IMG/VR virus record: IMGVR_UViG_3300031134_000466
Source of the DNA: a virus
Taxonomy: Duplodnaviria > Heunggongvirae > Uroviricota > Caudoviricetes
Length of the DNA stretch: 64,000 nt
Reading direction: 5' to 3' (one strand)
Position numbers and translations under genes: made by a program. This document shows positions 17,589 through 61,590 of this stretch, piece by piece. Below the pieces are notes generated by a model, which was given only the letters and a program-made list of their open reading frames with translations, was not told the DNA's origin and did not search any database. Numbering within the stretch: the stretch's first letter is position 1; each line of letters starts with the position of its first letter.

Positions 17589-17597
17589 ATTTTTACT

Positions 17598-18269: not shown

Positions 18270-18293
18270 AAAGCCCTGAACATTGAATTGTAA

Positions 18294-18329
18294 TTTTGTC
18301 CCCCACAAGAACCTTGTGGGGGACAAAAT
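18294..18329 (+). terminator. hairpin terminator
   Basis: 16-bp arms ttttgtcccccacaag / cttgtgggggacaaaa with a 4-nt loop. Confidence 0.8.
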
Positions 18330-18384
18330 ACTTTAATAAACTTTCACTCACCCTTGGTTCAAACTGGCTTTTGTCGGAGGTTTC

Positions 18385-18393
18385 CGATAGAAT
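18385..18393 (+). promoter_or_regulatory. -10 element (CGATAGAAT)
   Basis: 36-nt leader to ATG 18430. Confidence 0.5.
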
Positions 18394-18429
18394 AAAGTAA
18401 CCCAGTAAACAAGAAAGCAGGCACATTCG

Positions 18430-21147
18430 ATGGCCACCCTCATCGGCGTATCAGGAAAAATTGCGTCAGGTAAAGATTACTTGACTGACAAGCTTGTAAA
18501 CGAACTGAAACGTCTTGGTTTTACCATCGACTACACAGCCTTCGCTGCACCCCTGAAGCAGGAACTCAACGAAATCATCTCTCTGATTCGAGCTTTCCCT
18601 GAACAGGATGAACTGACTCTTTCTTTCTCCATCGCTCGTAATCTGGACATCAACTACGATGATGCTCTTCTGATTGCTACTAATCTGAGAACAGAAGTGC
18701 TTGCAGATGAAACTCTCAACGGTTACTCACGAACAGTCAAAATTCGTGAATCTCTTCAGTATCTTGGTACAGAGATTCGCAGGAAGCAGCGTCCTGAATA
18801 CTGGACTGACTTGTTCTTGAACTTCGTCAACAATTCAGAAACAGATTTCATTTTCGTTTCAGATGCACGTTTTCCTAATGAAATGGACACGGTTGTCGAC
18901 AATCAAGGTGTTGCTCTACGTCTTGACATTCCAGAAGAAGTTCTTGCAGAGCGTCGAAACAAGCGTGACGGCATCAAATACACTGATGAGCAGTTGAATC
19001 ATATCTCAGAAACTGCACTGGATGATTACACCAAATTTGACATGATGATTGGTGTGCAGTTCAACGAACGTGAAATCGTAGAGAATATCCTGAAAAAAGT
19101 TGAACGACTTCAGGAACTTCCTGCAAAAGCTTCTCGCGTCCTGAAAGCCAAAATCGCAGAGCATACACCTTCAGTGTCAGATAAGAAAGATGTTTACCCA
19201 GAGGTGAATTTACCTGAAGGCCAGTACAAAGTGTTGTCTTTGTTTGCAGGTGCAGGTGGATTAGATTTAGGTTTTGAGTTAGCTGGATTAGAAGCAGTTC
19301 ACGGTAAAGAAAAAGTGGACGCTGCTTACAAAGACAAAAAAGCATTTGACGAGCTCCGCAAAGAGAACCTCATTCACACGGTCTACGTAAATGACAACTT
19401 CAAAGATGCAATAGCTTCCTACCGTCAGAACTTTCCTGAAACGTTTATTGACGAACGAGATATCAAAAAAATCAGCAGCTTCCCTGATGCAGACCTTCTG
19501 TTAGGTGGATTCCCTTGCTTCCCTAAAGGAACAGGTGTAGCTACAGAGACAGGTTACAAAAACATTGAAGATGTCGAGAAAGGTGATTTTGTTCTCACTC
19601 ATGAAGGTCGTTACCGTGAAGTAACAGACACCATGACACGCAATGTGAACAAATCAGCCACTCTACATGCTTACGGTTCTCTTCCTTTGGTCTCAACGGT
19701 GAATCATCCTTACTGGGTGAAAGAAACTGTCGATTCTGAACCTAAATGGGTTCATGCTGAGAACATTCAGCCAGGTTGGTTTGTGTCTCATCCAATCAGC
19801 ACATTCAGTACAGATGAAGTAACCGAAAAAGAAGCCAAGTTTGCTTACTTAGCCGGCGTCTTCGCTCAGTGTGGTACAAAAACTTTGAACGACGAGCACA
19901 AGCCAAGCTATCTCACTCCTTACAATGATGAGGAGTTCCTGGCTTTGCTGGCTGAAATTGATGCTGTCTGTTCAAAAGAAGGCAAAAACGTCATCGTCCA
20001 CAGTGAACAGCTGAACAAGATGATGAAATTGTTCGGAACTACCAAATGGAACAAAGTCATTCCTGAAGAGGTCCACCAGAAACCACGAGCTTGGCAGAAA
20101 GCTTTCCTTGACGGCTTCCTGTTCCACAACTCTGACCAGGAAGTGCACAGCAAGAACTTGGCTGTTGGCGTGGCTCGAATTATTCGTAGTTTGAACCCTA
20201 CACAGGATGTTATCGTGTCCTCACCCAAATACAGTTCCTGGATTGTAACTGCAACTGACACTACCGTAGCTCATCATGATGACAACTATGTATGGGTTCC
20301 TGTGGAGCGTTTGCAAGTAAGAAACGAAATGGGAGTACTTCCTGTTTACGATATTACTGTAGCCGAAGACGAATCATTCGTAGCAGATGGATTTGTAGTT
20401 CACAACTGCCCTGGCTTCTCAGCAGCAGGTCTTCGCATGTTAGATGACCCTCGCAACTTCCTGTACCTGCATTTCGTACGAGCTGTTGTTGACGCTCAAC
20501 CAAAGATTTTCGTAGCAGAAAACGTAAAAGGTCTACTCACTCATGGTCAAGGTGAAGCTTTCAACCAGATAGTCGAAGACTTTGCAGCAGCAGGTTACAC
20601 CATCTACTACAAGCTGATGAAAGCAATTCAGCATGGTGTACCTCAGATGAGAGAGCGATTGATTATTGTTGGTGTGCGAAACGACATTGATTTTGAATAC
20701 CAGCATCCTGCTGCCACTCATGGTGAAGGTCTACTTCCATACAAAACTCAAAGAGACGCTTTCTACGATTTGAGGGACCTGAACGATGAACACTACGAAG
20801 GAGACTTCTCTTCTCGCTACCGTTCCAGAAGGTTCAAACTGGACTGGGATGTACCGTCAAAGACCATTTTGGCAACAGGGCGGCACCTGCCTTTGCACCC
20901 TGACGGAGTGCCTCAGGAGAAGCTGGAGCAGGACTTGTGGAGTTTAGACGCTGCAGACCGTAGATTCACTGTAAGAGAAGCTGCACGAATCCAGACATTC
21001 CCTGACTGGTATGATTTCGTGACAACCTCTCGCGGAACAACCAACACAGTCCTGGAGAAACAGTACCGTCAGATAGGTAACGCTGTTCCTGTCGAACTGG
21101 GACGAGTTGTTGCTGAACCTATTGTTCAGTTCCTGAAAAGTCTGTAA
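18430..21147 (+). CDS. dNMP-kinase-like P-loop domain fused to DNA (cytosine-5) methyltransferase, interrupted by an intein
   Basis: 905 aa. N-terminal 'GVSGKIASGKDY' and 'VSDARFPNE'. MTase motif I 'LFAGAGGLDLGF', IV 'GGFP|C..', VI 'ENVKGL', X 'GNAVPV'. Confidence 0.85.
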   Translation: MATLIGVSGKIASGKDYLTDKLVNELKRLGFTIDYTAFAAPLKQELNEIISLIRAFPEQDELTLSFSIARNLDINYDDALLIATNLRTEVLADETLNGYSRTVKIRESLQYLGTEIRRKQRPEYWTDLFLNFVNNSETDFIFVSDARFPNEMDTVVDNQGVALRLDIPEEVLAERRNKRDGIKYTDEQLNHISETALDDYTKFDMMIGVQFNEREIVENILKKVERLQELPAKASRVLKAKIAEHTPSVSDKKDVYPEVNLPEGQYKVLSLFAGAGGLDLGFELAGLEAVHGKEKVDAAYKDKKAFDELRKENLIHTVYVNDNFKDAIASYRQNFPETFIDERDIKKISSFPDADLLLGGFPCFPKGTGVATETGYKNIEDVEKGDFVLTHEGRYREVTDTMTRNVNKSATLHAYGSLPLVSTVNHPYWVKETVDSEPKWVHAENIQPGWFVSHPISTFSTDEVTEKEAKFAYLAGVFAQCGTKTLNDEHKPSYLTPYNDEEFLALLAEIDAVCSKEGKNVIVHSEQLNKMMKLFGTTKWNKVIPEEVHQKPRAWQKAFLDGFLFHNSDQEVHSKNLAVGVARIIRSLNPTQDVIVSSPKYSSWIVTATDTTVAHHDDNYVWVPVERLQVRNEMGVLPVYDITVAEDESFVADGFVVHNCPGFSAAGLRMLDDPRNFLYLHFVRAVVDAQPKIFVAENVKGLLTHGQGEAFNQIVEDFAAAGYTIYYKLMKAIQHGVPQMRERLIIVGVRNDIDFEYQHPAATHGEGLLPYKTQRDAFYDLRDLNDEHYEGDFSSRYRSRRFKLDWDVPSKTILATGRHLPLHPDGVPQEKLEQDLWSLDAADRRFTVREAARIQTFPDWYDFVTTSRGTTNTVLEKQYRQIGNAVPVELGRVVAEPIVQFLKSL
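19516..20406 (+). mobile_element. class 1 intein (297 aa) with degenerate LAGLIDADG-type homing-endonuclease insert
   Basis: Starts 'CFPKGTGVATETG' and has block B 'TVNHPYWV'. 'YLAGVFAQCG' and 'FLDGFLFHNSD' are LAGLIDADG-like. Ends 'VYDITVAEDESFVADGFVVHN' followed by the +1 Cys of 'CPGFSAAG'. Confidence 0.85.
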
Positions 21148-23433: not shown

Positions 23434-24246
23434 ATGTGCAAACGCAAACCATACCCTCGTTGCAGCTACCATGCTCGCATCAAACTTGAAGCTGCAGAAA
23501 AGTCTGGTGATCTTGAACGCATCAAGCTTGCAAGAAGGAACTATTTCACTTCATTAGCTGGTATTGCTGACCTCAAAGCTCAGGGTAAAGATGCATTAGC
23601 TGCAAAATATGAGACTCGTAGAGCAAATCTCATTGCTCAAGCTGAACGTGAGACTAACCTCCGCAAGACACCCCTGGTTTTGGCGTTGGATGTAGACAAC
23701 ACCAGTGGTGACTTCACAGAATCCATTCGTAACCATGTCATGAAGACACAAGGACTTACTCCTGAACAGGCTGAAACACTTCTTCCTAGCCCTCCAACTC
23801 ACTACTCTTTCGTAGACTCAGGCTGGTTCACTGACGTTAACTCATTCCTGGATGCTTTCCATTCAGCGGAAGAGAATGGTGTTTACTCCAAGATGAAAGC
23901 TTTTGACGGAGTAAGCAAGACTCTTCGCACTTTGGTCAGTAATCGTGACGTTGAAGTTCGTGTTGTGACGGCCCGTGGTAACAGATGGAATGAAGAGACC
24001 CGTCAGTGGTTGCGTCGTCATCGTATTCCTTTCACTTCCATCACTCACACTGAGGACAAAGAGAAAGTCCCAGGTATCGATGTGTACATTGATGACTCTG
24101 ACAAGCAGATTAACACTCTGCAGAAGAACGGTAAGACAGTTATTGCGTTCGAGAATGCATACAACGCAACTGTTCCTTCTAAGTATCGTGTAAAGAAGTG
24201 GAAAGAAGTGCCGGCAGTTCTGAAACTCATCGCACAAGCCAAATAA
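23434..24246 (+). CDS. N-terminal C-x7-C-x2-H module fused to HAD-type 5'(3')-deoxyribonucleotidase
   Basis: 270 aa. 'MCKRKPYPRCSYHA' then a helical region, then HAD motif I 'LALDVDNTSGDF' and 'VYIDDSDKQ'. Confidence 0.7.
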   Translation: MCKRKPYPRCSYHARIKLEAAEKSGDLERIKLARRNYFTSLAGIADLKAQGKDALAAKYETRRANLIAQAERETNLRKTPLVLALDVDNTSGDFTESIRNHVMKTQGLTPEQAETLLPSPPTHYSFVDSGWFTDVNSFLDAFHSAEENGVYSKMKAFDGVSKTLRTLVSNRDVEVRVVTARGNRWNEETRQWLRRHRIPFTSITHTEDKEKVPGIDVYIDDSDKQINTLQKNGKTVIAFENAYNATVPSKYRVKKWKEVPAVLKLIAQAK

Positions 24247-39276: not shown

Positions 39277-39328
39277 ATTATGAAAGCCGACCCGACAGAA
39301 ATTCTTTGTCAGGTCGGCTTTCATAATT
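39276..39328. terminator. bidirectional hairpin
   Basis: 22-nt arms aattatgaaagccgacccgaca / tgtcaggtcggctttcataatt (1 mismatch). Confidence 0.8.
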
Positions 39329-40449
39329 CAGTCAGCAGTTTTTCCGTTCAAGTTCCAGAATGGCTTCTCAAACTCAGGCTGAATCATTTTCCAGATGATG
39401 TCAGAGATTTTCTTCTCAGACCTGGTATCAAAATGACCTCCGCTGTGACGAGAGAATAACAAACCAGTAATGCGTTTGTCTTCTTTCTGTACAGCTGCAG
39501 CGTAGTCCTTCTGAGTGTATCCTTCAGGAAGTTCAGAAAGAATACGGTTGTAAGTTTCCTCAACTGTTGCACGCAATTCAGCATGCTCTGCAAGTAGTCG
39601 GTCACGAGTTGTTTCGACATACTCAACGAACTCATCAGGGAGACCAACAATCCATGAAGTGAAGTCACCGTCAGCTACAAGCAGCTCCCAGATGCGACGC
39701 GAAGAAGCACCTGTGATGACACGGTGAAGCTGAACGTAGTCATCCTGTTTCACTTTCACTCGAACATCACTATCCAGGAAGTGAACAACAACGCCTTCTT
39801 TGTTCTCACGACCAGGAGCGGCCAAAGCTTCAGTAAGGCTGTTGTATTCAAACTGCTCAACCTTCAACCAAGTCCATTCATCAACCTGTGATGCTGGTAC
39901 AGAGCGACCTGTTGCTGTGTTCACTCGGGCAATCAAGATGAGGTCATCCAAATCACCGTAGTTAACAACGATACGGTTTGTAGGGTAGATGATTTCCCAG
40001 ATGTAAGTTTCACCAGCAAGTGGCTCCCATTTTCCGTCGTACAGCTCCTGGTAACGTGCTGTGGCATGCAGAGCCTGCTCAGAGCTGAATGAACCTCGTG
40101 TGGAGATGTTCAGTCGACCAGTTTCAGGGTTTACATATGAAACACCCATAGAACCATCTGCTTTGTCTGTGACAACGATAGGTCCAGTCAGTGCATCCTG
40201 AGGAACATCTGGTTCGCCGTGGTTAAAGAACTTACCAAGAGGGCGGGAGACAATCTCCTGGGTGGAACCGTCAACGATAAGTCCTCGTGAAGCTAATGTT
40301 GCAGCGTTCCAGGCTCGGTCAAACTGGCATACCTGTGAGTAGTCAAAGATAGCCAGGTCAAGCGTAGGGTGAACCTGACGATTGATGTGCTTGTTCTGGA
40401 ATTCAGCTGCCCAAAGTTCAGCAGGAGCGATATCGTAAATGTGTACCAT
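39328..40449 (-). CDS. ATP-dependent RNA ligase, paralog A
   Basis: 373 aa. Motif I 'TDKADGSM', 'WEIIYPTNRIVVNY', IV 'NKEGVVVH', V 'VRVKVK'. Confidence 0.75.
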   Translation of the reverse strand: MVHIYDIAPAELWAAEFQNKHINRQVHPTLDLAIFDYSQVCQFDRAWNAATLASRGLIVDGSTQEIVSRPLGKFFNHGEPDVPQDALTGPIVVTDKADGSMGVSYVNPETGRLNISTRGSFSSEQALHATARYQELYDGKWEPLAGETYIWEIIYPTNRIVVNYGDLDDLILIARVNTATGRSVPASQVDEWTWLKVEQFEYNSLTEALAAPGRENKEGVVVHFLDSDVRVKVKQDDYVQLHRVITGASSRRIWELLVADGDFTSWIVGLPDEFVEYVETTRDRLLAEHAELRATVEETYNRILSELPEGYTQKDYAAAVQKEDKRITGLLFSRHSGGHFDTRSEKKISDIIWKMIQPEFEKPFWNLNGKTAD

Positions 40450-40536: not shown

Positions 40537-40809
40537 ATGGATGTTAGAAGAATGAGCGTTACTGATTTAGTAGCGATTGTCGTGGCTGCGGGCAAAAAAC
40601 CTCGACATGCTCAAAATGTTTTGCTTCGTCATGTTGTTACTGAACAGGTTGCTGTTACTTCCGATCATTACATTGAAGACAGTGAAGGCTCAGTATCAAC
40701 AATGCTATTGTTCTTTTTTGCTAAGTATAAGATTGATTACGATAAGCTCATCGATCATCCGGAGTTGAGTTTCGAAATCAAACAAAGGCTTTATCAACTT
40801 ACGGTATAA
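40537..40809 (+). CDS. hypothetical protein
   Basis: 90-aa ORF. The start is uncertain (ATG 40552 is an alternative). Confidence 0.45.
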   Translation: MDVRRMSVTDLVAIVVAAGKKPRHAQNVLLRHVVTEQVAVTSDHYIEDSEGSVSTMLLFFFAKYKIDYDKLIDHPELSFEIKQRLYQLTV

Positions 40810-40819
40810 AAGATTGGTT

Positions 40820-41173
40820 ATGACGTTTATGAATACTACAACACTATGGCGCCCAGTAGGACCAAAAGAACTGGAACTAATAGCTCAGACTGGATTTACC
40901 CATTTCCCACCCAGATTACCAGAACAACCCATTTTTTATCCTGTGCTGAATCAGGAATACGCAGTAAAGATTGCTAAAGAATGGAACGTAAAACATGATG
41001 GTGCTGGTTATGTGAGCGAATTCCAAGTAGAAACCAGCTTTTTGTCTAATTACCCTATCCAGCAAGCTGGAGGTAGAACCATTCTCGAATATTGGATACC
41101 TGCAGAGGATTTAGATGCTTTCAACGATTCGATAGTGGGTATTATTAAAATCGTCAACACTTTTCTTTCTTGA
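40820..41173 (+). CDS. conserved hypothetical protein
   Basis: 'LWRPVGPKELELI..FPPRLPEQPIFYPVLN' looks like a widespread bacterial family that I cannot name with confidence. Confidence 0.5.
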   Translation: MTFMNTTTLWRPVGPKELELIAQTGFTHFPPRLPEQPIFYPVLNQEYAVKIAKEWNVKHDGAGYVSEFQVETSFLSNYPIQQAGGRTILEYWIPAEDLDAFNDSIVGIIKIVNTFLS

Positions 41174-41293: not shown

Positions 41294-42706
41294 ATGCCAA
41301 TTGGTCAAAAAATTGTAGGAGTAGCTGTAGCAGCTACAGTTTCATTAAGTGCGGTAGCTTTTGTGGCTTCTCCAGCACTTGCTGATGAGGCAGCTCCTAC
41401 GACAACACAAGACGTTCCTACGGAAGTAGAAACTGGGACTGAGGGAGTTGCTCCAGCAGCTGACCCTGTTGAGGAAGAAGTACCTGCTCCTGAGGTTGCA
41501 GTACCAGAAGAGACTGAACCTGAAGTAGTTGTTCCATCTGAAGAAGCACCAGTAGAAGAAGTACCTACTGAAGAAGCACCTGTTGAAGAAGTTCCTGTCG
41601 AAGAGGTCCCTGCAGAGGAAAATGCTTTGGTAGCAACAACATTTGCTTTGACTTTTGGTGGTGACACATCAACTGTTCCTGAAAACCTGACACTTGAAGT
41701 TCACTATACTTCTTTGGTGAATGATGAAGTGCAGGATAATGTTGTTTACCTAACCCGCGATGTCCCTCCTACTGCCATTGACATCCCTGAAGGTTCTACA
41801 GTTCAGGTTTCAGTAACTGGTTTACCTGACATCGAAAACACAACACTAAACCCAGTTGTTCTGCTCAATGGGAATCCTTTGCCTGCTGATGGTGTTACAT
41901 TAGTGTCTGGTGAAGTGTATGATTTTTCTGTAGCTATTGATGCAGTAACAGAAAACCCTGCACCTTCAGACGCTCCTGCTATTCAGCAGGATGAAGCTCT
42001 TCCTGTTGATGTAGAAAACCTTATTTCTGTAAATGCTGCAGTTGCTTTCCCTGGTGACACTATAACTGTTTCTGCTTCAAGCGTTGCTACTCCTGAATCT
42101 TGGGTTTCAGTATGGCTTCATTCCACTCCTGTGCTTCTCGCTGGTTGGGTTCAGACTGACGTGAATGGAAACATTGATGTCACAATTCCAGCAGGTACCG
42201 AAACTGGTGAACACCGTATTGTTGTGTCTGACGCAGACAACAACATTGTAGGTTGGACAAGCATTCTTGTTGTCAACCAGGATGATGAAGTTATCGTTCC
42301 TGGAGAAGACCCTGAAACCCCTGTAGACCCTGAAACGCCTACAGACCCTACCCTTCCTGTGGACCCTACAACTCCTACTGACCCAGAAGTGCCAGTTACT
42401 CCTACAAACCCAGATGCAGGAGTAACTCCTGAGACTGAACCAGAAACAACTCCTCGTGACCCTTCTTCTGGCGGAGTATCCATCATTCCTGAGGAAGAGT
42501 TCAACACTGGAGGTTACGACAATGATGAGTTGGGTAACGTAACAGACCGTGGTGACCGCTCAGACATTAACACCAGAGCTTTGGCTTACACTGGTTCTGA
42601 CTCCAACTCCACGGTGTTCCTCACCTTCATGGGTGGTCTCATGTTGATTGGTGGTTTCGTCCTCCGCAGACTTCCTCGTCTGCGTGCTGCACGTCGCAAT
42701 AGCTGA
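41294..42706 (+). CDS. cell-wall-anchored surface protein with LAxTG sorting signal
   Basis: 470 aa. Signal peptide ending 'SPALA|DE', acidic Pro/Glu/Val repeats, Pro/Thr repeats, and C-terminal 'LAYTG' + TM segment + 'RRLPRLRAARR'. Confidence 0.85.
   Translation: MPIGQKIVGVAVAATVSLSAVAFVASPALADEAAPTTTQDVPTEVETGTEGVAPAADPVEEEVPAPEVAVPEETEPEVVVPSEEAPVEEVPTEEAPVEEVPVEEVPAEENALVATTFALTFGGDTSTVPENLTLEVHYTSLVNDEVQDNVVYLTRDVPPTAIDIPEGSTVQVSVTGLPDIENTTLNPVVLLNGNPLPADGVTLVSGEVYDFSVAIDAVTENPAPSDAPAIQQDEALPVDVENLISVNAAVAFPGDTITVSASSVATPESWVSVWLHSTPVLLAGWVQTDVNGNIDVTIPAGTETGEHRIVVSDADNNIVGWTSILVVNQDDEVIVPGEDPETPVDPETPTDPTLPVDPTTPTDPEVPVTPTNPDAGVTPETEPETTPRDPSSGGVSIIPEEEFNTGGYDNDELGNVTDRGDRSDINTRALAYTGSDSNSTVFLTFMGGLMLIGGFVLRRLPRLRAARRNS
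41468..41624 (+). repeat. low-complexity (E/P/V) repeat region in the surface protein
   Basis: 'EEVPAPEVAVPEETEPEVVVPSEEAPVEEVPTEEAPVEEVPVEEVPAEE'. Confidence 0.7.
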
Positions 42707-42792: not shown

Positions 42793-44685
<1,893 letters not shown>

Positions 44686-50800: not shown

Positions 50801-51706
50801 ATGTCACAGATAATGCGGATTCACCGTGGAGTGCAAGGCTCTGGTAAATCCACAGAAGCCATCCGTTGGGTGAACCAGGACCCGTTAAACCGTGCCCGTG
50901 TGAACCGTGATGACATTCGTCTCAGCCAGTTCGGCTCCTACGAGCTTCCTCAGGAACTCGAAGTTGCTGTTACCAAAGTAGAGCATGCCATCATCACCGC
51001 ACTTCTTGCTGCACGCAAAAGTGTTGTTGTTGACAATGTGAACCTGAAAGCCAAGTACGTTAAAGAGTACCTGCTTATTGCGGAGAAAGCCAACGTACCT
51101 GTTGTGCATCAGGACTTCCCTGTGGAGTTGGAGACAGCTCTTGCTCGTAACGCTGCTCGTGACCGTAAAGTCCCTGCACATGTGATTGAGACAACATTCA
51201 AGCGTTACATTCAGAGTGGCAAGTTCCCTCCGTTCCCCGTACTTGACTACGAAGCCGCTGCAGCAGGAATCTATGTTCCTGATGAGACTCTGCCTAAAGC
51301 TATCCTTTTGGATGTTGACGGCACAGCCATGAAGATGGGTTCACATCGTGGACCGTTTGACTGGCACAAAGTCATTGATGACGAGCCTAACCCGCCTGTT
51401 GTTGAAACAGTAAAAGCTTTGCATGCTCAGGGCTACAAAGTTGTTGTCATGTCTGGTCGTGATGAAGTCTGCAAAACAGACACGTTACTTTCTCTGGAAG
51501 TAGCTGGTGTTCCTGTGGATGAAATCTACATGAGACCCCACAACGATTACCGTAAAGACAACATCATCAAGCGTGAACTTTTTGATGCTCACATTCGGGA
51601 GCGTTTCAACATCCTGTTAGCTTTGGATGACCGGAACCAGGTTGTGGACGCTTACCGTCGTGAGCTGGGTCTTCCTGTCTTTCAGGTTGACTACGGAGAC
51701 TTCTAA
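50801..51706 (+). CDS. polynucleotide kinase-phosphatase (Pnkp): P-loop 5'-kinase + HAD 3'-phosphatase
   Basis: 'HRGVQGSGKST' and 'LLDVDGT', 'VVMSGRDE', 'ALDDRNQVV'. AGGAAA RBS. Confidence 0.8.
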   Translation: MSQIMRIHRGVQGSGKSTEAIRWVNQDPLNRARVNRDDIRLSQFGSYELPQELEVAVTKVEHAIITALLAARKSVVVDNVNLKAKYVKEYLLIAEKANVPVVHQDFPVELETALARNAARDRKVPAHVIETTFKRYIQSGKFPPFPVLDYEAAAAGIYVPDETLPKAILLDVDGTAMKMGSHRGPFDWHKVIDDEPNPPVVETVKALHAQGYKVVVMSGRDEVCKTDTLLSLEVAGVPVDEIYMRPHNDYRKDNIIKRELFDAHIRERFNILLALDDRNQVVDAYRRELGLPVFQVDYGDF

Positions 51707-51757: not shown

Positions 51758-52729
51758 TTAAATTTCTCGCAGCTGCACAATTGTCAGTTCAGTTGCTTCA
51801 CCTTTTTTATTGACCCTTTTGACTTTCACATCATTAGCAACAACTTCGAATTTTGCACCACGAGGAATGATGAACTCATACTCTCTTGGACCTTGCGATG
51901 AAATAGCTGTGATTGGGGCTCCACTTTTTGTAAGAATCTGTAAAGAAACATTGATGTTGTCTTTGGAAGGTAAATCTTGAGGATTCAAACTTGTCGATAA
52001 GAAGAATTTAGGTTCGTAAGTGCTACCAACAGGGAAATGTTTGTCGAGGTTTTGAGCGTCATCACTTGAATGATATCCTTTTTCATCATAAAGATGATGA
52101 CGGCGGTAAACCATCACGCCTTCTTCTGCTGGTTCGTGTTTAGCAAAAGCATCATCCAGGATAGTTACAGCTGCATCCAACGTTTCAGGTGCAACATTTT
52201 TTGCGTACGGATTTGTTGAAGCTGAAAGATGGCCGTTGATGTCAGCATAGCCATCTTCTGAATACCAGCGAAGAGTAGCTATTTCAGTATCATCCAGTTT
52301 GGCACTCCAGTTTTGGGAATCTGCCATGCTGTTCAACAGGTCAGCATGTTTGTAATGCATCTCTTCAAGAGTGTCACCAGTTTCGAAAAACGTCGGAGAA
52401 GTGTAAGCAGCTTTTTGTGCTTTTTTGTGGGTGATGACTTTACGATCCGCAACAGCAGCTAATCTTCTGGCTCGTTCTTGAGAAAGCGCTTCGTATTCTT
52501 CTGCATGCCATTCCTGCGTTGGATTCTTTTTGATCTGTCTTTCCAAAGACTTTAGATAAGCTGGTGTTAGTTTGTACTCTGCTTCAGCTTTTCTTCTTAC
52601 CGCTATTAGCTTCTCAAGCTCTGGGTCTTTGCGGTTGTCCATGAAAGCACTGAGAACCGCTTGATGAGCTTTAGCGTAGGTGGCTGCAGCATGAGCTGAA
52701 CAACGGGGACCAGGTTTTGGGTAACACAT
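51758..52729 (-). CDS. R-S-ExE ADP-ribosyltransferase 3 with N-terminal C-x7-C-x2-H module
   Basis: 323 aa. 'MCYPKPGPRCSAHAA' is identical to the ART 2 N-terminus. 'VMVYRRH', 'LSTSLN', 'REYEFIIPRG'. Confidence 0.7.
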   Translation of the reverse strand: MCYPKPGPRCSAHAAATYAKAHQAVLSAFMDNRKDPELEKLIAVRRKAEAEYKLTPAYLKSLERQIKKNPTQEWHAEEYEALSQERARRLAAVADRKVITHKKAQKAAYTSPTFFETGDTLEEMHYKHADLLNSMADSQNWSAKLDDTEIATLRWYSEDGYADINGHLSASTNPYAKNVAPETLDAAVTILDDAFAKHEPAEEGVMVYRRHHLYDEKGYHSSDDAQNLDKHFPVGSTYEPKFFLSTSLNPQDLPSKDNINVSLQILTKSGAPITAISSQGPREYEFIIPRGAKFEVVANDVKVKRVNKKGEATELTIVQLREI

Positions 52730-53146: not shown

Positions 53147-54028
53147 ATGACTACAAATTTAGGTTTCAGAGCTGAGGTCTCATACGACGCAGTGAAAGAT
53201 TTGACTCTCATGAGTTCATCATCTTCAGACTTCTCTTCTCCTCTTAACTTTGCCCTCACACGAGGTTCTGACGAGGACAAAGCCGTCAGGGCTCTCCTCG
53301 AAGACCAGGGACGAGTAGAATTCGTCAAGTCAGCGGTTTCTTTGAACAACCTTTCCCAGGTAGGTTCTTTCGGTGTTAGAACAGACGGTAATCCTTCCCG
53401 AGCTGACCTGGGTGTTCACAAGAACCTCACTATCGCAGGTAAAGATGGTTCAGGTGTTCTGAACTTCGTCAGAAACTATCTTCTTTGGGCTTACGCTACA
53501 AACACTCGAATCTATGCTGTGAACGCTCCAGCTGACATGTACGGTGCTGTGAATTACTTGCGTACTGACAAACTGGTTCGTATCGACTCAGGAGATGAGC
53601 CGAACATTGATTCCATCTGGAGTCAGTACGATGCTGATGTTGCTGCTGGTCGTCCTGTGCTTGTGTTGGTGAACAGCATTGGTGATATCGAAGACCAGGA
53701 TGAGGTGGTTGCAAGTTTCCTTGCCCATGTTGACACACGCAAGTTCGAAGTTTACGCTCTTTCTTTCTCAACATTCCAGGAAGAGCTTCCAGAAGACACT
53801 CATTACGAGAACTTCTTCTGGCGAGTTGGTGTTGACGCTGAGCACACTACAGGTTTCATTGGTGACACTCTTCCTGAGATTGCATCTTACATGATGAAAG
53901 AACATGTAGGAATTCCTCATGAGAACCCTCGTGGCGTGCTGTGGTTAAACAGAAATGCTGAGCGTTACGAACGAGTTATCACCTATGTGGTGCCTCGTCG
54001 TTTCTGGGAAGACAGCCTGAACTTCTGA
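53147..54028 (+). CDS. hypothetical protein (possible degenerate P-loop fold)
   Basis: 293 aa. 'IAGKDGSGVLNF' and 'VLVLVNSIGDIED' loosely resemble Walker A/B but lack the canonical GK[ST]. Confidence 0.5.
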   Translation: MTTNLGFRAEVSYDAVKDLTLMSSSSSDFSSPLNFALTRGSDEDKAVRALLEDQGRVEFVKSAVSLNNLSQVGSFGVRTDGNPSRADLGVHKNLTIAGKDGSGVLNFVRNYLLWAYATNTRIYAVNAPADMYGAVNYLRTDKLVRIDSGDEPNIDSIWSQYDADVAAGRPVLVLVNSIGDIEDQDEVVASFLAHVDTRKFEVYALSFSTFQEELPEDTHYENFFWRVGVDAEHTTGFIGDTLPEIASYMMKEHVGIPHENPRGVLWLNRNAERYERVITYVVPRRFWEDSLNF

Positions 54029-54037
54029 TTTCAGACA

Positions 54038-54085
54038 ATTGAGGGACCTGTGCTTGTAATTAAAGTGCAGGTCCCTCAATTTTTT
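54038..54085 (+). terminator. intrinsic terminator
   Basis: attgagggacctg / caggtccctcaat followed by tttttgt. Confidence 0.85.
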
Positions 54086-54121
54086 GTATTCTGCTGTCTG
54101 TTTCTTTGTTAGTAATAGGGC

Positions 54122-55363
54122 ATGTCAACTACAAGAAAACCTCCTTATCATCACAGCGATGGTACAAACTGCTGGACTAAAGATTGTTCGATCAGAGGCC
54201 GTGAAGATACAGAAAAAGCTGCTTTCTTCAAGCAAGTAGAAACAGCTGCTGAGACTGTTGTTCCAACCAATGAATTGCCTCCTCTGTCAGCTTTTCAGAA
54301 AGCCTATGATGATGGTCGCATTGAGTGCAGCCGCCACCCTGAACATCCTTATGTGACTTACAAGTATTCCAGAACAACTCAGTTTGCTTCTGACTGGGAT
54401 GATGTGACCTTAGCGTCTCGTGGTGTCATCTTCAATGAGGAGACAGGCGAGATTGTTGCTCGTCCATTTGCTAAGTTCTTCAACCATAACGAACCGTCAG
54501 TTCCCAGAGACAAATTACATGGCCGTATTAGTGTAACTGACAAGCTGGACGGTTCTTTAGGAATTGGTTATGTTGATGAGAACGGTAAGTTCAACATTGC
54601 AACCTCTGGAAGCTTTATCTCTGAACAGGCAAAACGTTCTACAGAGCTCTATCATGAGCGTTATGAAGGCAACTGGAAGCCAAATCCTAAGTTGACCTAC
54701 ATGTGGGAAATCATCTACCCAGAAAATCGTGTCGTGGTCAACTATGGCGATGAAGATGACTTGCATCTCATCGGTGCTGTCAACAAACGAACTGGTAAAT
54801 CAGTTCCGTTGCGTGACATCAAAGAATGGAAGTGGAAAAGAGCTGAAGAGTACAAAGACTTCTCCTCCTTGGATGCTGTTCTTCACTCTCCTGAAAGAGA
54901 AAACCGTGAAGGTTTCATTGTTCATTACATCGATACTGATACCCGCGTGAAATACAAGCATGCAGATTATCTTGAGCTCCATCGTAACCGTACTGGCGTG
55001 ACTTCCAAAACTATCTGGCGTAAAATGCGTATGGGTGAAGATATGGCAGGTTGGAAAGAGAACATGCCTGAAGAGTTCAGTGAGTTCGTATCCACTCGTC
55101 AAGCTAAAATCACTGCCGGATATAACAAAGAAATTGCCCAAATTACTGATGAGCATGGCACTTTCAAAGCAACTCTTCCTGCTGGTTATGACCGTAAGAC
55201 TTTTGCTACCACTTTGAAAAACTCACCTCTTGTACCAGCCGAAAACAAAGCTTTCGTCATGAACCTTGAGTTCAACGGCAGTGCTGTTGGAAGTGTTGTT
55301 CAATCTCATAAGATTTGGGACCGTGTGAAACCTGAGGACGAGAACACCTTGTGGAACATGTAA
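54122..55363 (+). CDS. ATP-dependent RNA ligase, paralog B (with Cys-containing N-terminal extension)
   Basis: 413 aa. 'TDKLDGSL', 'WEIIYPENRVVVNY', 'NREGFIVH', 'TRVKYK'. Collinear with paralog A. Confidence 0.75.
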   Translation: MSTTRKPPYHHSDGTNCWTKDCSIRGREDTEKAAFFKQVETAAETVVPTNELPPLSAFQKAYDDGRIECSRHPEHPYVTYKYSRTTQFASDWDDVTLASRGVIFNEETGEIVARPFAKFFNHNEPSVPRDKLHGRISVTDKLDGSLGIGYVDENGKFNIATSGSFISEQAKRSTELYHERYEGNWKPNPKLTYMWEIIYPENRVVVNYGDEDDLHLIGAVNKRTGKSVPLRDIKEWKWKRAEEYKDFSSLDAVLHSPERENREGFIVHYIDTDTRVKYKHADYLELHRNRTGVTSKTIWRKMRMGEDMAGWKENMPEEFSEFVSTRQAKITAGYNKEIAQITDEHGTFKATLPAGYDRKTFATTLKNSPLVPAENKAFVMNLEFNGSAVGSVVQSHKIWDRVKPEDENTLWNM

Positions 55364-55746: not shown

Positions 55747-56412
55747 ATGAAGAACACATACGGAATTCTCGGCGGATATGGGGCGGTAGCCACCCTACAT
55801 CTCCAGCAGCTGCTCGTGAAGCGAGTCCTCAGCACTGGACAGTACGCTGATATTGCCTTCCCTCGTATGGTAATTTCCAATCTGCCTGAAGACATCATCA
55901 ATGCTGAAGGACATATCAGCAGCCTTGGTAGCCTGCGGACTGAACTTGGTAAAACAGCTCCTCTATTCCAAGGAGCCACAGATGTTTATGTCATTTGTAA
56001 CACCTTCCATGTCGAAGAAGAGTTCATGCAGCGAGTCTTCGCTAACAAACTACATTCTGTTCCGGCTTTAACCAGTCAAGCTGTCGTAGATGCTGGATAC
56101 TCCAAACCTCTTATCGTAGGTTCCAAGCTGACTTCTCAGGATAACCTGTACAGTCATACAGCTTACACCTCAACTAACATGTTTGCGGATGAGCTAATCA
56201 CTGCTGGAATGAAGTACCAGACATCTCACTCTCAGCTGGCAGATGTCATAGCTGCTGCCAAACAGGCTAGCTCAGACTGCATTGTTTTAGGTTGCACAGA
56301 TTTGTCCGTGATGGCTGACACTCTCCGAACCATGACTGCACTTCCCGTAATCGACTCCGTTGAAGCAGTCGCCAACCATATTTACAACTCCCATACGAAA
56401 GATGAATCGTGA
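55747..56412 (+). CDS. Asp/Glu/hydantoin racemase-superfamily enzyme (two-Cys type)
   Basis: 221 aa. 'YGILGGYGAVAT', 'VYVICNTFH', 'IVLGCTDLS', 'PVIDSV'. Confidence 0.75.
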   Translation: MKNTYGILGGYGAVATLHLQQLLVKRVLSTGQYADIAFPRMVISNLPEDIINAEGHISSLGSLRTELGKTAPLFQGATDVYVICNTFHVEEEFMQRVFANKLHSVPALTSQAVVDAGYSKPLIVGSKLTSQDNLYSHTAYTSTNMFADELITAGMKYQTSHSQLADVIAAAKQASSDCIVLGCTDLSVMADTLRTMTALPVIDSVEAVANHIYNSHTKDES

Positions 56413-57374
56413 AAGTCTACAACGACACAGTAACCATGACTGCAGAGCTGGCTCAGACCTTAGAGCAATTGAGAGCTGTGCGGGCTTTTGACGCTACAGA
56501 ATGGATTGAGCGTAAGGTTGTCCTAATCAACCAGTACTTCGCTCAGAACAAGCTCTCAGGGGCTGTAGTAGGTGTTTCTGGTGGCATCGACTCAGCTGTA
56601 GCCCTTTCACTTCTTGTCAAAGCATCCCAGCAAGACAACAGCCCAATTCAGAAGATTGTCCCTCTTCTACTTCCTGCTCTTTCTTACGAAGGTGCAACTA
56701 ACCAAGACGGGGCAGTTCAGCAGGCTACTGACCTATGCCAGAACCTTGGACTGAAGCCAGCTGTTTTCACTAAGCTCACATCTCTTTCCCAAGTGATTAC
56801 TTCTGAACTGGAAGACATTCTGGACATCAAATCAACAGACTGGGCTAAAGGACAGCTAGTGGCTTACACCAGAACCCCAGTCCTGTACAACACCTGCTCA
56901 ATCCTTACTGACGCCGGCTACCCTGCACTGGTTGTAGGAACCACAAACCTTTCCGAAGGTGGATACCTCGGTTATGTCGGAAAAGCTTCAGATGGTATGG
57001 TTGACCTGCAAGTAATTTCTGATTTGTACAAGTCAGAAGTGTACAAAGTCGCAGCTTTACTTGAAGTTCCTGAAAGCGTTATGAAAGCTACTCCTACAGG
57101 GGACATGTACGACGGTCGTGAAGATGAAACAGTTTTCGGAGCTTCTTACGACTTCGTAGAGCTGTTTCATCTATGGCTACAGGCACGCAGCGTCCCATTG
57201 AAACTTCTTCGAGATGCCCACTTTGTCACAGGAGCTAAAAACCTGCAAAAACTGCACGACTACAACGCACATAAGTACACCTACGGAACTCCATCCATTC
57301 ACCTGGACATTATGAACGCAGCAATCCCAAACGGATGGAACAATCAGCCTTGGAGGCCCCAGAATGGCAACTAA
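56409..57374 (+). CDS. divergent NadE-family PP-loop amidotransferase (NAD or NMN synthetase-like)
   Basis: 321 aa. 'GVSGGIDSAV', 'VVGTTNLSEGGYLGYVGKASDGMVD', 'ATPTGDMY..EDETVFGASYDFVE'. GTGA overlap with the upstream stop codon. Confidence 0.7.
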   Translation: MKVYNDTVTMTAELAQTLEQLRAVRAFDATEWIERKVVLINQYFAQNKLSGAVVGVSGGIDSAVALSLLVKASQQDNSPIQKIVPLLLPALSYEGATNQDGAVQQATDLCQNLGLKPAVFTKLTSLSQVITSELEDILDIKSTDWAKGQLVAYTRTPVLYNTCSILTDAGYPALVVGTTNLSEGGYLGYVGKASDGMVDLQVISDLYKSEVYKVAALLEVPESVMKATPTGDMYDGREDETVFGASYDFVELFHLWLQARSVPLKLLRDAHFVTGAKNLQKLHDYNAHKYTYGTPSIHLDIMNAAIPNGWNNQPWRPQNGN

Positions 57375-58104
57375 ATTCGTAAACCAAGTCAACTTCGAAA
57401 TCCCTACTGTTGCTCACACAGTTCAAGTGAGACCGTTCCCTGAACTTGACCGTACAGCGGTAGTGATTCCTGAACTCGTCCCTGCCGAGGAAAAAGTCAG
57501 TATCATGGCAGCGTTGGAAGACTCCAACTGGCAGCCAGTGTCAGTGACAGGAATGTCAGGAAACTGGAAAGAAGGTGACCCTATTGGTTCTTACCGTGCT
57601 TCCAACTACACTCCTGAGTATGCTGAAGTTCTGTGGAACAGAATCAAACACGGTTTCCCTACTGTACGCACATTCACAGATGCTGATAACACCGACTTCG
57701 ATGGTCATGAGCTGTGGGAACCCATTGGCGTGTCACCTCTTCTTCGATTCATCAAATATGAAGAAGGCGGCTGGCTTGTAGTTCATTACGATGCTCCGTA
57801 TGTCGAATCAGAAGATGTTCGCACACTCCAAAGCCTTGTCGTATATCTGGAACACCCAGGTGAACTTCACGGAGGAGCAACCCGCTACCTTCATGACCCT
57901 CAGGCTCATCTTCCTGTTACTCAGCGTGAACTCAACGACGAATACCGTGCTGCTGAAGAAGATGAAGTGAGACTCCGCTTCGCTCCTGAAGATGGAACAG
58001 CTGTAGTCTTCGACCACCGCCTTCTGCATGACGCTGAAAAGGTCACAGGAACTGGCACAAAAACAATCATTCGAACAGACATTATGTACAGGAAAGTACG
58101 ATGA
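57364..58104 (+). CDS. 2OG-Fe(II) oxygenase (P4H-like)
   Basis: 246 aa. 'VVHYDAP' (HxD), 'VVFDHRLLHDAE' (distal His), 'KTIIRTDIMY'. 11-nt overlap with the upstream gene. Confidence 0.65.
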   Translation: MATKFVNQVNFEIPTVAHTVQVRPFPELDRTAVVIPELVPAEEKVSIMAALEDSNWQPVSVTGMSGNWKEGDPIGSYRASNYTPEYAEVLWNRIKHGFPTVRTFTDADNTDFDGHELWEPIGVSPLLRFIKYEEGGWLVVHYDAPYVESEDVRTLQSLVVYLEHPGELHGGATRYLHDPQAHLPVTQRELNDEYRAAEEDEVRLRFAPEDGTAVVFDHRLLHDAEKVTGTGTKTIIRTDIMYRKVR

Positions 58105-59624
58105 ATTTAGACAGATACTTCCAGGCTCTTTACGAAAGAACCAATAGTAAGCAGGACTTAGTAACAGCAGGTTGGATTGAAAACAAGCCGCTACGCATCA
58201 ACCCGCATGTGCGATTCTACACAACCCCTCTGCAAGCTATTCGTGACGCGGGCAAAAAGGACGTATCTGTCTTGTTCTACCCTGGTTGTTTCGCTCCAGT
58301 CCATGAAGGTCACCTTGGGGCTATGAGGCTGGCCAAAGAAGCAATTGAAACCCAGACAGGCGAGACTGTAGCTGCAGGCTATTTCACCCCTGACCATGAT
58401 AACTACATCATGCGTAAAACTCATGACGAACGTTTCATCGCACCTAACCGCATCGCTCTTCTCCATGAAGCAGTAGAAAATGAACCCTGGATGCAGGTGG
58501 ACGACTGGGCTTCACTGTACGCTCCCACTGATTTGAACTTCACAACACTATATGACAGGTTCAACCTTTACCTGAAGCGTTGGTTACCTGACTTGAACAT
58601 CAAGCTGTACATGGTTTTTGGTGGAGACAACTACATGTTTGCGAACAGTTTCACTGAATACGGACACGGTGTTTGTGTGCCAAGAGAAGGAGCTCAGATG
58701 GACTTGAGCTTAGTTCACCCTGATGCCAAAAAGCGGGTTATTTTCAGCGAAAAAGTCTGTACAGACCATTCTTCTACAGCTGCACGAGCAGCAAACCCTG
58801 GAGCTATCGATATCCACGGCAGAAGTGCATTAGGTTCCACCTATGTACTTCGTGAAGACTTGGACTTAGCTTTCCGAGAGAACCCTACTACTTACTCGAA
58901 CAAAATTATTGCTGACTCTGTAGCTATTCTTTTGCAGGCGCATGTGCCGTACGAGAAAGTCAAAGTGAAAAGAGTTCCCATTATCAGGCAGATGGCTAAC
59001 CATACTGAGACAGAGAATGTGATTTCCTTAGACTGTTTCTGGAAAGCAGAGCAGAACCTTGAAATTTCTCGCCTGTTTTCAACTGGAGGCAGTCAGCACC
59101 ATGCCATCAAATACGTCAACCGTCCTGGCTCGCCGGCTCTTCAAGAGCAGGTAGAAGCAATTCCTGCTGGAGTGTACACTCTCGTAGATGATGACATTGC
59201 TACTGGGGAGACAATGAGTTTTGTTTCCAACATGCTGGAAACGCACGATGTTGTTGTTGATAAGCAGGACAGCCTGATTTCCGAGCTGGGTTCTGACTTG
59301 TACGATGTAGTTGATTTGCGAGACTTTGTTCTTGGAACCGAACACGGCGGACTGACGGTTGCAACTCCTACAGGAGAAACGACAAGAATGCCTTACATCG
59401 CTCCTTATGTGAATCTTGTAAGCCGTGCTCGCATTAACCCTGACCGGGTGTTCAGTTTCTCCACCGAACTGTGGAAATTGAACTATGCACTTTACCGTAA
59501 TACGAAAACTACAGTAGGTGACATCAAAGAACATCAGGACTTCACCATGTTCGGTTTTGCCGAAGACATGACAGTGGCTGACTTGTGCCAAAAGCATCTT
59601 CAATTGATGACTGAATTGCAGTAA
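58101..59624 (+). CDS. NadD/NMNAT-type adenylyltransferase fused to a type I phosphoribosyltransferase domain
   Basis: 507 aa. 'GCFAPVHEGHL' ((H/T)xGH), 'HSSTAAR' (SxTxxR), C-terminal PRPP-binding loop 'YTLVDDDIATGETM'. ATGA overlap with the upstream gene. Confidence 0.75.
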   Translation: MNLDRYFQALYERTNSKQDLVTAGWIENKPLRINPHVRFYTTPLQAIRDAGKKDVSVLFYPGCFAPVHEGHLGAMRLAKEAIETQTGETVAAGYFTPDHDNYIMRKTHDERFIAPNRIALLHEAVENEPWMQVDDWASLYAPTDLNFTTLYDRFNLYLKRWLPDLNIKLYMVFGGDNYMFANSFTEYGHGVCVPREGAQMDLSLVHPDAKKRVIFSEKVCTDHSSTAARAANPGAIDIHGRSALGSTYVLREDLDLAFRENPTTYSNKIIADSVAILLQAHVPYEKVKVKRVPIIRQMANHTETENVISLDCFWKAEQNLEISRLFSTGGSQHHAIKYVNRPGSPALQEQVEAIPAGVYTLVDDDIATGETMSFVSNMLETHDVVVDKQDSLISELGSDLYDVVDLRDFVLGTEHGGLTVATPTGETTRMPYIAPYVNLVSRARINPDRVFSFSTELWKLNYALYRNTKTTVGDIKEHQDFTMFGFAEDMTVADLCQKHLQLMTELQ

Positions 59625-59641
59625 GATGATAGACATGATGC

Positions 59642-60238: not shown

Positions 60239-60246
60239 AGTTGTTC

Positions 60247-60255
60247 CGATAGACT
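60247..60255 (+). promoter_or_regulatory. -10 element (CGATAGACT)
   Basis: 75-nt leader with an AAAGGAG RBS before ATG 60331. Confidence 0.5.
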
Positions 60256-60330
60256 GAGTTAGCATGCTTAGCATGTCTGCCCTGGCAGTAAACCAGTTTA
60301 TTCGATTTAGACAACAAAGGAGTACCTATC

Positions 60331-61548: not shown

Positions 61549-61575
61549 TACCTGCCAAACACACAGGTTATCTCA

Positions 61576-61584: not shown

Positions 61585-61590
61585 AGTTAA

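Follow-up and report, generated by a model that had tools for sequence, protein, structure and literature searches.

The 64,000-nucleotide stretch of IMG/VR virus record IMGVR_UViG_3300031134_000466 analysed here (the window, at its full length) encodes a kinase/phosphatase, Pnkp, and two RNA ligases, LigA and LigB. These proteins probably form a T4-style pathway for the repair of RNA breaks, with one healing enzyme and two old sealing isoforms, in a very large phage-like replicon. Pnkp would heal RNA ends by converting 5'-OH to 5'-PO4 and 2',3'-cyclic-PO4 or 3'-PO4 to 3'-OH; the ATP-dependent LigA and LigB would seal the healed ends, proceeding from lysine-AMP through AppRNA to the phosphodiester. 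LigB appears to be the usual Pnkp-linked ligase in these genomes. The two ligases most likely differ in their RNA targets (their C-domains are 24% identical), in the place or time of their action, which an N-terminal tag on LigB may set, or in both, and jointly they would protect against host RNases directed at tRNA or other RNAs. Against tRNA-cutting defences, the textbook reply of phages is RNA repair by healing and sealing. Multiple RNA ligases with a kinase-HAD phosphatase have been published for jumbo phages and described as 'probably not redundant' (PMC7824862), and a multi-ligase kit in a jumbo phage is thus of an already known kind.

One healing enzyme and two RNA ligases

Homology supports the kit proposed by an earlier sequence-only reading of this DNA, namely two RNA ligase paralogs and a T4-type Pnkp acting by healing and sealing (Table 1). 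Pnkp carries an AAA_33 kinase domain and PF25109 HAD_PNKP (6e-48, Pfam), and its translation joins the P-loop GSGKST of an N-terminal kinase and the HAD phosphatase motif DVDGT in one chain. It aligns over its full length with T4 Pnk (PDB 1ltq; E=1e-31) and better still with Pnkp1 (PDB 4xrp; E=2e-47), in agreement with its earlier description as T4-Pnk-like. An alternative TTG start lies at 50774. LigA and LigB are collinear paralogs as claimed, with 41% identity and 59% positives over 375 aligned positions (BLASTP, E=4e-101), a similarity far above chance level. Both contain the motifs KFFNH.EP.VP, TDK.DGS, WEIIYP.NR(I/V)VVNYGD and EG..VH that had been quoted as shared, except that the 'F.' placed before the first of them is found in LigB only and is 'LG' in LigA. 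The layout is dispersed, as had been proposed, with Pnkp 10.3 kb from LigA and 2.4 kb from LigB. Measured against orthologs of about 97% identity, dN/dS is 0.031 for LigB, 0.036 for LigA, 0.024 for Pnkp, 0.036 for the neighbouring ADP-ribosyltransferase (ART) ART52 and 0.060 for the neighbouring protein p293; LigA and LigB are thus under strong purifying selection.

Table 1. Positions of the repair genes, their neighbours and tagged genes in the window and in related loci (L numbers).
Feature	Locus	Position	Strand	Description
LigA	window	39328..40449	minus	R-type ('canonical') Rnl1-like RNA ligase, 373 aa
LigB	window	54122..55363	plus	'B-type' Rnl1-like RNA ligase, 413 aa
LigB knuckle	window	54143..54199	plus	Cys-Cys-His knuckle, residues 8-26 (PYHHSDGTNCWTKDCSIRG); helix next, residues 23-45
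Pnkp	window	50801..51706	plus	predicted bifunctional 5'-kinase / 3'-phosphatase, 301 aa
ART52	window	51758..52729	minus	R-S-E class ADP-ribosyltransferase with N-terminal MCYPKPGPRCSAH tag; convergent with Pnkp
p293	window	53147..54028	plus	conserved, directly upstream of LigB
Terminator-like hairpin	window	54037..54091	plus	strong; 19-bp stem and T run between p293 and LigB; consensus scan
p90 and p119	window	40537..41173	plus	two small genes divergent from LigA
Tagged NT5C	window	23434..24246		nucleotidase
Tagged ART-like protein	window	28539..29579
Tagged ART	window	30500..31465
Second tag version	L001	1861, 2552, 3840
Second tag version	L009	9087, 19417
Second tag version	L097	8208
Second tag version	L175	18730
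Second tag version	L263	6197, 9065, 18435
Second tag version	L264	12430
Second tag version	L265	1140

Family and fold of the ligases

Profile alignment and fold search place LigA and LigB in the Rnl1 lineage and not in Rnl2, Rnl3 or Rnl5, a choice that the sequence-only reading had left to be made. Both exceed the gathering cut-off of 28.3 bits for PF09511 RNA_lig_T4_1 (LigA 45.1 bits, 1.4e-11; LigB 54.7 bits, 1.6e-14), and the T4 Rnl1 entries are their sole solved relatives in the PDB by sequence search. When aligned by hhalign to a T4-like Rnl1 profile, both match T4 residues 32-347 (LigA 99.8%, E=1e-27; LigB 99.6%, E=2e-23). The AlphaFold2 (AF2) models are confident, with a pLDDT of 93.5 for LigA and 89.9 for LigB, and T4 Rnl1 (2c5u/5tt6) is the top Foldseek match of both (E about 1e-17, 385-397 aligned columns), followed by fungal Trl1-LIG (Rnl6), archaeal Rnl3 and, more weakly, Rnl5 and Rnl2. 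Identity as Rnl2, Rnl3 or Rnl5 was rejected, these folds matching less well than T4 Rnl1 and Trl1. The NCBIfam 'T4 RnlA' equivalog TIGR02308 is matched by the two ligases with 74 and 62 bits, far short of its cut-off of 242. Because T4 Rnl1 is the best match, the equivalog cut-off is missed and the C-domain match to T4 is weak, sequence and models together class LigA and LigB as Rnl1-lineage members of the superfamily that are distant from T4 RnlA and not its equivalogs. Actinophage ligases have been put outside Rnl1 and Rnl2 proper by Iyer et al. (PMC7824862).

The N-subdomain residues typical of Rnl1 (Arg54, Lys75 and Phe77 in T4) correspond to R55, K73 and F75 in LigA and R100, K118 and F120 in LigB. 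The nucleophile is K96 in LigA (TDKADGS) and K141 in LigB (TDKLDGS); further catalytic positions are E152, E218-G219 and K232/K234 in LigA and E196, E263-G264 and K277/K279 in LigB. Motif Ia reads T117-R118 in LigA and T161-S162 in LigB. The prospect that one paralog lacks an essential residue, raised in the sequence-only reading, is therefore borne out at a single place: LigB has no basic residue in motif Ia (S118-K119 in T4), and the remaining catalytic residues are kept in both ligases. LigA and LigB are most alike in the nucleotidyltransferase core (54% identity) and less so in the N-subdomain (38%) and the C-domain (24%); their C-domains are clearly homologous to each other (E=7e-35). In T4 Rnl1, it is the C-terminal domain that gives tRNA specificity (PMC6379707).

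Two ligase clades and the motif Ia change

An alignment in which LigA, LigB and T4 Rnl1 were joined by 203 homologs from metagenomes and genomes, and a neighbour-joining tree, set the two ligases in separate groups. Equivalents of T4 R54, K75, F77, K99, G102, E159, E227, G228, K240 and K242 are present in 205/205 sequences, except for one Tyr in place of F77. The R-type group (n=115, including LigA) comes from actinophages, Actinomycetota chromosomes and metagenomes, and the B-type group (n=89, including LigB) solely from metagenomic contigs of uncultivated origin, many of them 0.5-1.0 Mb long. Motif Ia is T-R in the R type (Arg in 114/115, Lys in 1/115), and in the B type the basic position is taken by A, S, G or M, with K/R in 0/89. 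At the position of T4 N38, all 89 B-type ligases have Lys (K81 in LigB) and R-type ligases have N, D or G. The stretch preceding the R54 equivalent has about 54 residues in the R type and about 100 in the B type. No B-type ligase occurs among 185,579 GTDB species genomes, and none above 41% identity in the cultured-phage collection. The best GTDB matches to either ligase reach at most 43% identity and are all Actinomycetota, apart from one metagenome-assembled genome labelled Acholeplasmataceae.

LigA is as far from LigB (41% identity) as it is from cellular actinobacterial ligases (42-46%), and a recent tandem duplication was rejected for this reason. The comparison identifies LigA and LigB, at the level of sequence, as old separate isoforms and not recent duplicates.

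The basic residue of motif Ia touches the gamma-phosphate of ATP and by inference also the 5'-PO4 of the RNA (PMC6379707). Mutation of its counterpart in the archaeal ligase MthRnl (R118A) lowers ATP affinity 40-60-fold, and AppRNA tends to be deadenylated (PMC4797309). Strand beta2, at whose end the N38 position is found, adjoins the start of the R54-bearing strand beta3 in the published beta1-beta2-beta3-beta4 antiparallel sheet (PMC6379707). The invariant Lys of the B clade therefore most likely replaces the motif Ia basic residue as a relocated phosphate-binding Lys, the most economical reading given that the N38 position neighbours the R54 equivalent in the sheet. Similar arrangements occur outside the clade: a third lineage on 430-kb IMG/VR phage contigs, whose ligase is 32-33% identical to both LigA and LigB, combines Lys at beta2 with Gln in motif Ia and has no N-terminal extension, and in the Rnl1 homolog of phage RaK2 these two places are taken by Arg and His, respectively.

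That LigB is a pseudo-enzyme was considered and rejected: it keeps the step-1 and step-3 residues, has a dN/dS of 0.031, and shares its motif Ia change, along with the invariant Lys, with the whole clade. Clade-wide loss, purifying selection and the correlated Lys instead point to a rewired enzyme. The B-type ligases thereby offer a natural experiment in how ligases hold a 5'-phosphate. Both the B-type subfamily, with about 90 sequences, and the apparent relocation of the motif Ia function appear to be new.

Linkage of the ligases to Pnkp

Pnkp lies 1-4 kb upstream of a B-type ligase, on the same strand, in 6/10 lineages examined in the huge-contig group (window/L006, L093, L097, L263, L264 and L265). 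The window and L006 share the order Pnkp, ART52, p293, LigB, and L093/L094 (0.88 Mb) has Pnkp, a p293 homolog and LigB, without an ART. The B-type ligase follows Pnkp at a distance of 3.4 kb in L097 (885 kb), 1.4 kb in L264 (695 kb) and 2.4 kb in L265 (791 kb). In L263 (128 kb), an ART52-like gene, thymidine kinase, Pnkp, a tagged ART and the ligase are all co-directional, with a gap of 15 bp between tagged ART and ligase. The R-type ligase is typically followed directly by Pnkp in smaller phage contigs, and in the 696-kb lineage Pnkp and an ART52 ortholog adjoin the R-type ligase and the B-type ligase has its own divergent ART. At least three lineages combine both ligase types in one replicon: that of the window, that of the 696-kb contig and that of the 695-kb contig.

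Three lineages (window/L006, L001+L009 and L263) have an ART within the Pnkp-ligase cluster or next to it. Some of this adjacency is expected by chance, since ARTs are numerous in these genomes. The recurrent Pnkp-ART-ligase gene cluster appears to be new. ART52 matches PF03496 with 74.6 bits (cut-off 23.4; 8.7e-21), its translation has the Arg, Ser-Thr-Ser and Glu-x-Glu motifs of its class (YRR, STS and EYE), and its nearest PDB matches are VIP2, CdtA and iota Ia. Its ortholog adjoins Pnkp in the L001 lineage and is separated from Pnkp by one gene, thymidine kinase, in L263. The gene for p293 has a homolog at the same position in L006-8, L093/94 and L266; the protein has no Pfam, PHROG or NCBIfam match and nothing significant in the PDB. 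The hairpin that follows it suggests that LigB forms a transcription unit of its own or is attenuated.

On the other side of the kit, p90 and p119 are possible accessory genes and are conserved next to LigA in L003/L004. A homolog of p119 (TLWRPVGPKELELI...PPRLPEQPIFYPVLN...; 40814..41173) lies at 1057..1413 of L093, 6 kb upstream of Pnkp in the 0.88-Mb L093/L094. No match was found for p119 in Pfam, PHROGs or NCBIfam, for p90 in PHROGs or NCBIfam, or for the conserved neighbour p107 in PHROGs; the minus-strand p107 open reading frame may be spurious, as metagenome gene calls place a 67-aa plus-strand gene there. Among the relatives, Pnkp of the 885-kb contig (L097, 5371..6447) has a Cys-rich C-terminal tail (RAGRCLRCGRPISGGRALGPTCEKIG) that is not present in the window Pnkp. 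The 695-kb relative L175 carries a third RNA ligase at 17518..18681 (PF09414 RNA_ligase and PF21189), 6.4 kb from its R-type ligase and about 100 kb from its B-type ligase.

The N-terminal Cys-Cys-His knuckle

The Cys-bearing extension of LigB ('NCWTKDCS') pointed out by the sequence-only reading is real and conserved in the clade, but it is not specific to ligases, being a mobile module that also occurs on ARTs and many other enzymes. C17 is kept in 76/80 and C22 in 59/80 sequences of a local N-terminal alignment, and each in at least 90% of alignment A2; P8, Y9, H11, C17, T19 and C22 are invariant among the 35 majority-type N-termini of the LigB clade. Most B-clade N-termini read M..(R/K)KAPY.H.DGSNC(W/Y)TKNCS.G, and NGKKWSYCYQ.DP.KC..HYHG, MSNCH.ENP.LC.LHG and MCRSKANGGRRCGH occur interchangeably in others. 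In the AF2 model the LigB tag is of low confidence (46-76) and forms a short hairpin and then a helix, undocked from the core.

When 1.84 billion representative proteins were searched with a profile of the 43-residue LigB-type N-terminus, 102 matched at E<=1e-3 and 36 at E<=1e-10. These proteins have 102-772 aa and unrelated downstream domains, and in every one of them the tag stands at the extreme N-terminus. In a Pfam scan of 101 of these matches, the tagged domains are ADP-ribosyltransferases (PF03496 in 16 proteins, PF01129 in 5), GNAT acetyltransferases (at least 6), NT5C, Fic and Rnl1 (2 each) and, once each, Tpt1/KptA, RlaP, a poly(A)/CCA-type polymerase head, a PLDMTX-like deamidase, HAD hydrolases and others. 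Pfam finds no N-terminal family shared by the 101 proteins, the Pfam matches of the window proteins all lie downstream of the tag, and a literature search for the knuckle motif turned up nothing relevant. Within the window, a sister tag, MC..KPGPRCS.H, begins two ARTs (30500 and 51758), the close variant MCKRKPYPRCSYH begins the NT5C nucleotidase and KCAKPKGVYCRLH begins the ART-like protein. This second version of the tag, Cys-x6-9-Cys-x1-3-His (e.g. MCYPKPGPRCSAH and NCKARDPENCRYHG), is borne by these four proteins and by many uncharacterised ones of the replicon and its relatives, and is interchangeable with the LigB-type knuckle inside the B-ligase clade.

The variety of the cargo, which spans protein-modifying toxin domains, RNA repair enzymes and nucleotidases, fits better with a common address or partner-binding module than with a substrate-binding one. 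The tag may be a small zinc- or RNA-binding knuckle. It suggests one address or partner for many host-manipulating and RNA-repair enzymes, and this mobile tag of about 20 residues, which has no Pfam entry, appears to be new. It is conceivable, if doubtful, that the knuckle is a trafficking tag which sends enzymes into the virion, or to some other destination that they share, and LigB would then be pre-made and delivered with the DNA. Two precedents make the idea reasonable: the closest ARTs of cultured phages are fused to minor capsid (MuF) proteins, and the virion of T4 carries Alt. Such delivery, if real, would solve a circularity, namely that repair enzymes cannot be translated once the host has cut the tRNAs of the phage. 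The Pnkp-ART-ligase cluster would then be a combined 'disarm and repair' module, and the delivered set would elsewhere include Tpt1, RlaP and a poly(A)/CCA-type polymerase alongside ART, Fic and GNAT effectors.

Nature of the replicon

The window most likely belongs to a huge phage, to judge from its gene content and its relatives. It has 45% G+C, and neither a tRNA scan nor an Rfam scan detected a tRNA or an RNA family in it. Its phage-style genes encode RNR small subunit, dCMP deaminase, MazG, YqaJ-RNase T exonuclease, NT5C, DnaB, RNase H and NucS, as well as an intein-interrupted dNMP-kinase/C5-methylase, PARP, three PF03496-type ARTs, two NAD synthases, an NMNAT-like protein and Hsp70. Mixed with these are envelope genes, for signal peptidase, a Wzy-like protein, permeases and an LAxTG wall-anchored protein. 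The 788,683-bp metagenomic contig Ga0308164_10000007 (L006) is syntenic with the window, its proteins being about 97% identical, and more distant relatives lie on contigs of 696,453, 695,487, 791,393, 878,612 (L094), 883,042 (L093) and 885,359 bp (L097). There is no megablast match of the window in INPHARED phages, no close match in IMG/VR and no close relative of either ligase in the 185,579 GTDB species genomes. In the 696-kb relative, a rIIB match stands beside a HATPase_c-domain protein that is read as rIIA-like. Huge phages of up to 841 kb are recorded in a 2025 preprint (bioRxiv 10.1101/2025.02.27.640493); the related contigs reach 0.88 Mb and, if they are complete phage genomes, exceed the maximum given there.

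Several other features of the window and its relatives deserve mention. The 905-aa product of 18430..21147 joins a dNMP-kinase-like domain to a C5 cytosine DNA methylase and is split by a Hint/intein splicing domain. A bacterial-type PARP with WGR and PARP catalytic domains is encoded at 26372..27676, and a cluster at 55747..63158 comprises NAD synthases (56409 and 62265), a 507-aa cytidylyltransferase/NMNAT-like protein (58101), a 2OG-Fe(II) oxygenase and an Asp/Glu racemase; PARP and the NAD cluster agree with published accounts of jumbo phages as self-sufficient in NAD metabolism. The product of 41294..42706 is a Pro/Glu-rich secreted protein ending in LAYTG, a hydrophobic stretch and an Arg-rich tail, a wall anchor of the class E sortase type that hints at an actinobacterial-type host; its gene adjoins one for a full-length Hsp70/DnaK (42826..44685, 771 bits). 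The adjacent genes 1636..2751 and 2847..4235 have 45-residue N-termini that differ at 2 positions, ML(A/T)LNKVLQSSKAAIDLASIMVGVIIIGLIGGVI(A/S)ATVFAVIPWS, with a pilin-like hydrophobic segment, and the second product carries DUF285 repeats. On the 532-kb contig of a relative (L011), a tRNA with anticodon CTA, an amber suppressor, lies at 12620..12693, 1.3 kb from a B-type ligase whose protein is also found on a 1.0-Mb contig.

Weighing the explanations

Certain points weigh against T4-style repair by Pnkp and both ligases in a phage-like replicon. No Pnkp lies close to the B-type ligase in 4/10 lineages. Aligned alone to the T4 C-domain, the C-domains of LigA and LigB match weakly (38% and 26% probability, about 30 columns around RK.(Y/F)A). 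The placement of K81 is derived from the sheet topology in the literature and not from model coordinates, and the pairing of a basic beta2 residue with a changed motif Ia is not universal, because the Rnl1 homolog of phage phiM7 has Pro in motif Ia and neither basic residue. In work by Wang, Ho and Shuman in 2003, T4 Rnl1 K119A was reportedly inactive in overall ligation and K119 essential; for that reason LigB could be impaired in RNA adenylylation. No phage structural gene was seen in the window, and we can therefore only infer the replicon type.

Plain redundancy would assign both ligases the same job on the same substrates, the second being a back-up or a matter of dosage and the differences in motif Ia, tag and C-domain being inconsequential. 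The identical catalytic set kept in both ligases and the occurrence of each type next to Pnkp in some lineage would suit it, and back-up systems are frequent in jumbo phages (PMC7824862). It is nevertheless unlikely: LigA has diverged from LigB as far as from cellular actinobacterial ligases (about 41-46% identity), both types are co-retained in at least three lineages with dN/dS of about 0.03, the clade-wide differences are fixed and not drifting, and the C-domains are just 24% identical. Another proposal is that LigB is not mainly a repair ligase but a partner of the neighbouring ARTs, with pre-activated 5' ends or RNA linked to NAD or ADP-ribose as its substrates; it could then do without the motif Ia residue for binding a plain 5'-PO4. 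The idea of NAD- or ADP-ribose-linked RNA was raised as speculation in the sequence-only reading, and its support is one of gene context. LigB indeed has no 5'-PO4-binding residue there, an ART stands between or beside Pnkp and ligase in the three lineages named above, the ART and B-type ligase of L263 are 15 bp apart with a near-identical tag and linker, and the tag is also present on Tpt1 and many ARTs. However, with three PF03496-type ARTs and a PARP in 64 kb the adjacency is partly chance, four Pnkp-LigB lineages have no ART (L093, L097, L264 and L265), and these ARTs resemble the protein-targeting toxins VIP2 and CdtA. The adenylate pocket and step-1 residues of LigB are also intact, which suggests ordinary use of ATP, and the proposal is accordingly improbable.

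The window might also derive from a small cellular genome, such as that of an ultra-small Gram-positive-like bacterium, and the kit would then serve cellular RNA repair. Relatives on contigs of 0.6-1.0 Mb, the Hsp70, signal peptidase, O-antigen ligase-like protein, ABC transporter, permeases and LAxTG protein of the window, and the pilins and T2SSE ATPase of relatives could be taken in this sense. Against it, only 3 tRNAs, one of them the amber suppressor, are found in about 250 kb (0 in the 64-kb window and 3 in about 185 kb of related loci), and no ribosomal protein or aminoacyl-tRNA synthetase domain is among the Pfam matches of the window open reading frames and the related loci listed. 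No close relative exists among the GTDB species genomes, the rIIB match adjoins an rIIA-like ATPase in a relative, and the content is of phage style (RNR, dCMP deaminase, MazG, YqaJ exonuclease, intein-split methylase, PARP and several ARTs). The preprint cited above places huge phages at sizes of up to 841 kb. A cellular origin is thus improbable, and RNA repair by Pnkp with two ligase isoforms in a huge phage remains the preferred explanation.

Comparison with known systems

One of the closest known systems is that of phage T4, in which Pnkp (pseT) and Rnl1 (rnlA/gp63) oppose the PrrC anticodon nuclease. The window Pnkp has the same two domains and aligns over its full length, and the window ligases have an N-subdomain of Rnl1 type and a nucleotidyltransferase core, and no step-1 or step-3 residue is missing from them. 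The window differs from T4 in having two ligases instead of one, with identity to T4 Rnl1 of about 20-30% and a weak C-domain match, and in that LigB lacks the K119 equivalent and bears an N-terminal knuckle. LigA is of the same type as the ligases of Actinomycetota and of the Rnl-Pnkp operons in Arthrobacter and Streptomyces phages (38-44% identity, the same length and T-R in motif Ia). In those operons the ligase is usually followed directly by Pnkp and each record has a single ligase locus, whereas the window LigA is 10 kb from Pnkp and a B-type ligase holds the Pnkp-linked position.

Jumbo-phage multi-ligase sets likewise combine several RNA ligases with a kinase-HAD phosphatase, NAD enzymes and ARTs, and their ligases were read as non-redundant counter-defence (Iyer et al. 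2021, PMC7824862). The examples given there are RtcB with Rnl1 and Rnl2, or three Rnl2, whereas the window has two paralogs of the Rnl1 lineage; a search of that text for 'Zn-knuckle', 'zinc knuckle' and 'cysteine' found none of these terms, and it contains no description of the B subtype, its altered motif Ia or the shared knuckle. Of the fungal and plant Trl1/Rnl6 and Tpt1 pathway, the window has neither the cyclic phosphodiesterase that leaves a 2'-PO4 nor the Tpt1 2'-phosphotransferase. A Tpt1 bearing the LigB-type tag does occur elsewhere, as one of the 101 tag-profile proteins scanned, and Trl1-LIG is only the second-best fold match of the ligases.

The virion-delivered ARTs, T4 Alt and the MuF-ART toxins of Mycobacterium prophages, offer a further comparison: the set of tagged ART, Fic, GNAT and deamidase proteins resembles an effector repertoire that has one N-terminal trafficking module in common. 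Unlike the MuF-ART fusions, the window ARTs have no MuF domain, and their tag is a Cys-Cys-His knuckle of about 20 residues. The bacterial Pnkp1-Rnl-Hen1 complex (4xrp) includes the closest solved relative of the window Pnkp and is also a three-part system of healing, sealing and modifying enzymes. Its ligase chain matches neither LigA nor LigB by sequence (E<=1) or among the 50 best fold matches listed, and no Hen1 2'-O-methyltransferase is encoded among the window open reading frames scanned with Pfam. The third partner is thus Hen1 in the bacterial complex and, recurrently, an ART in clusters of the window type.

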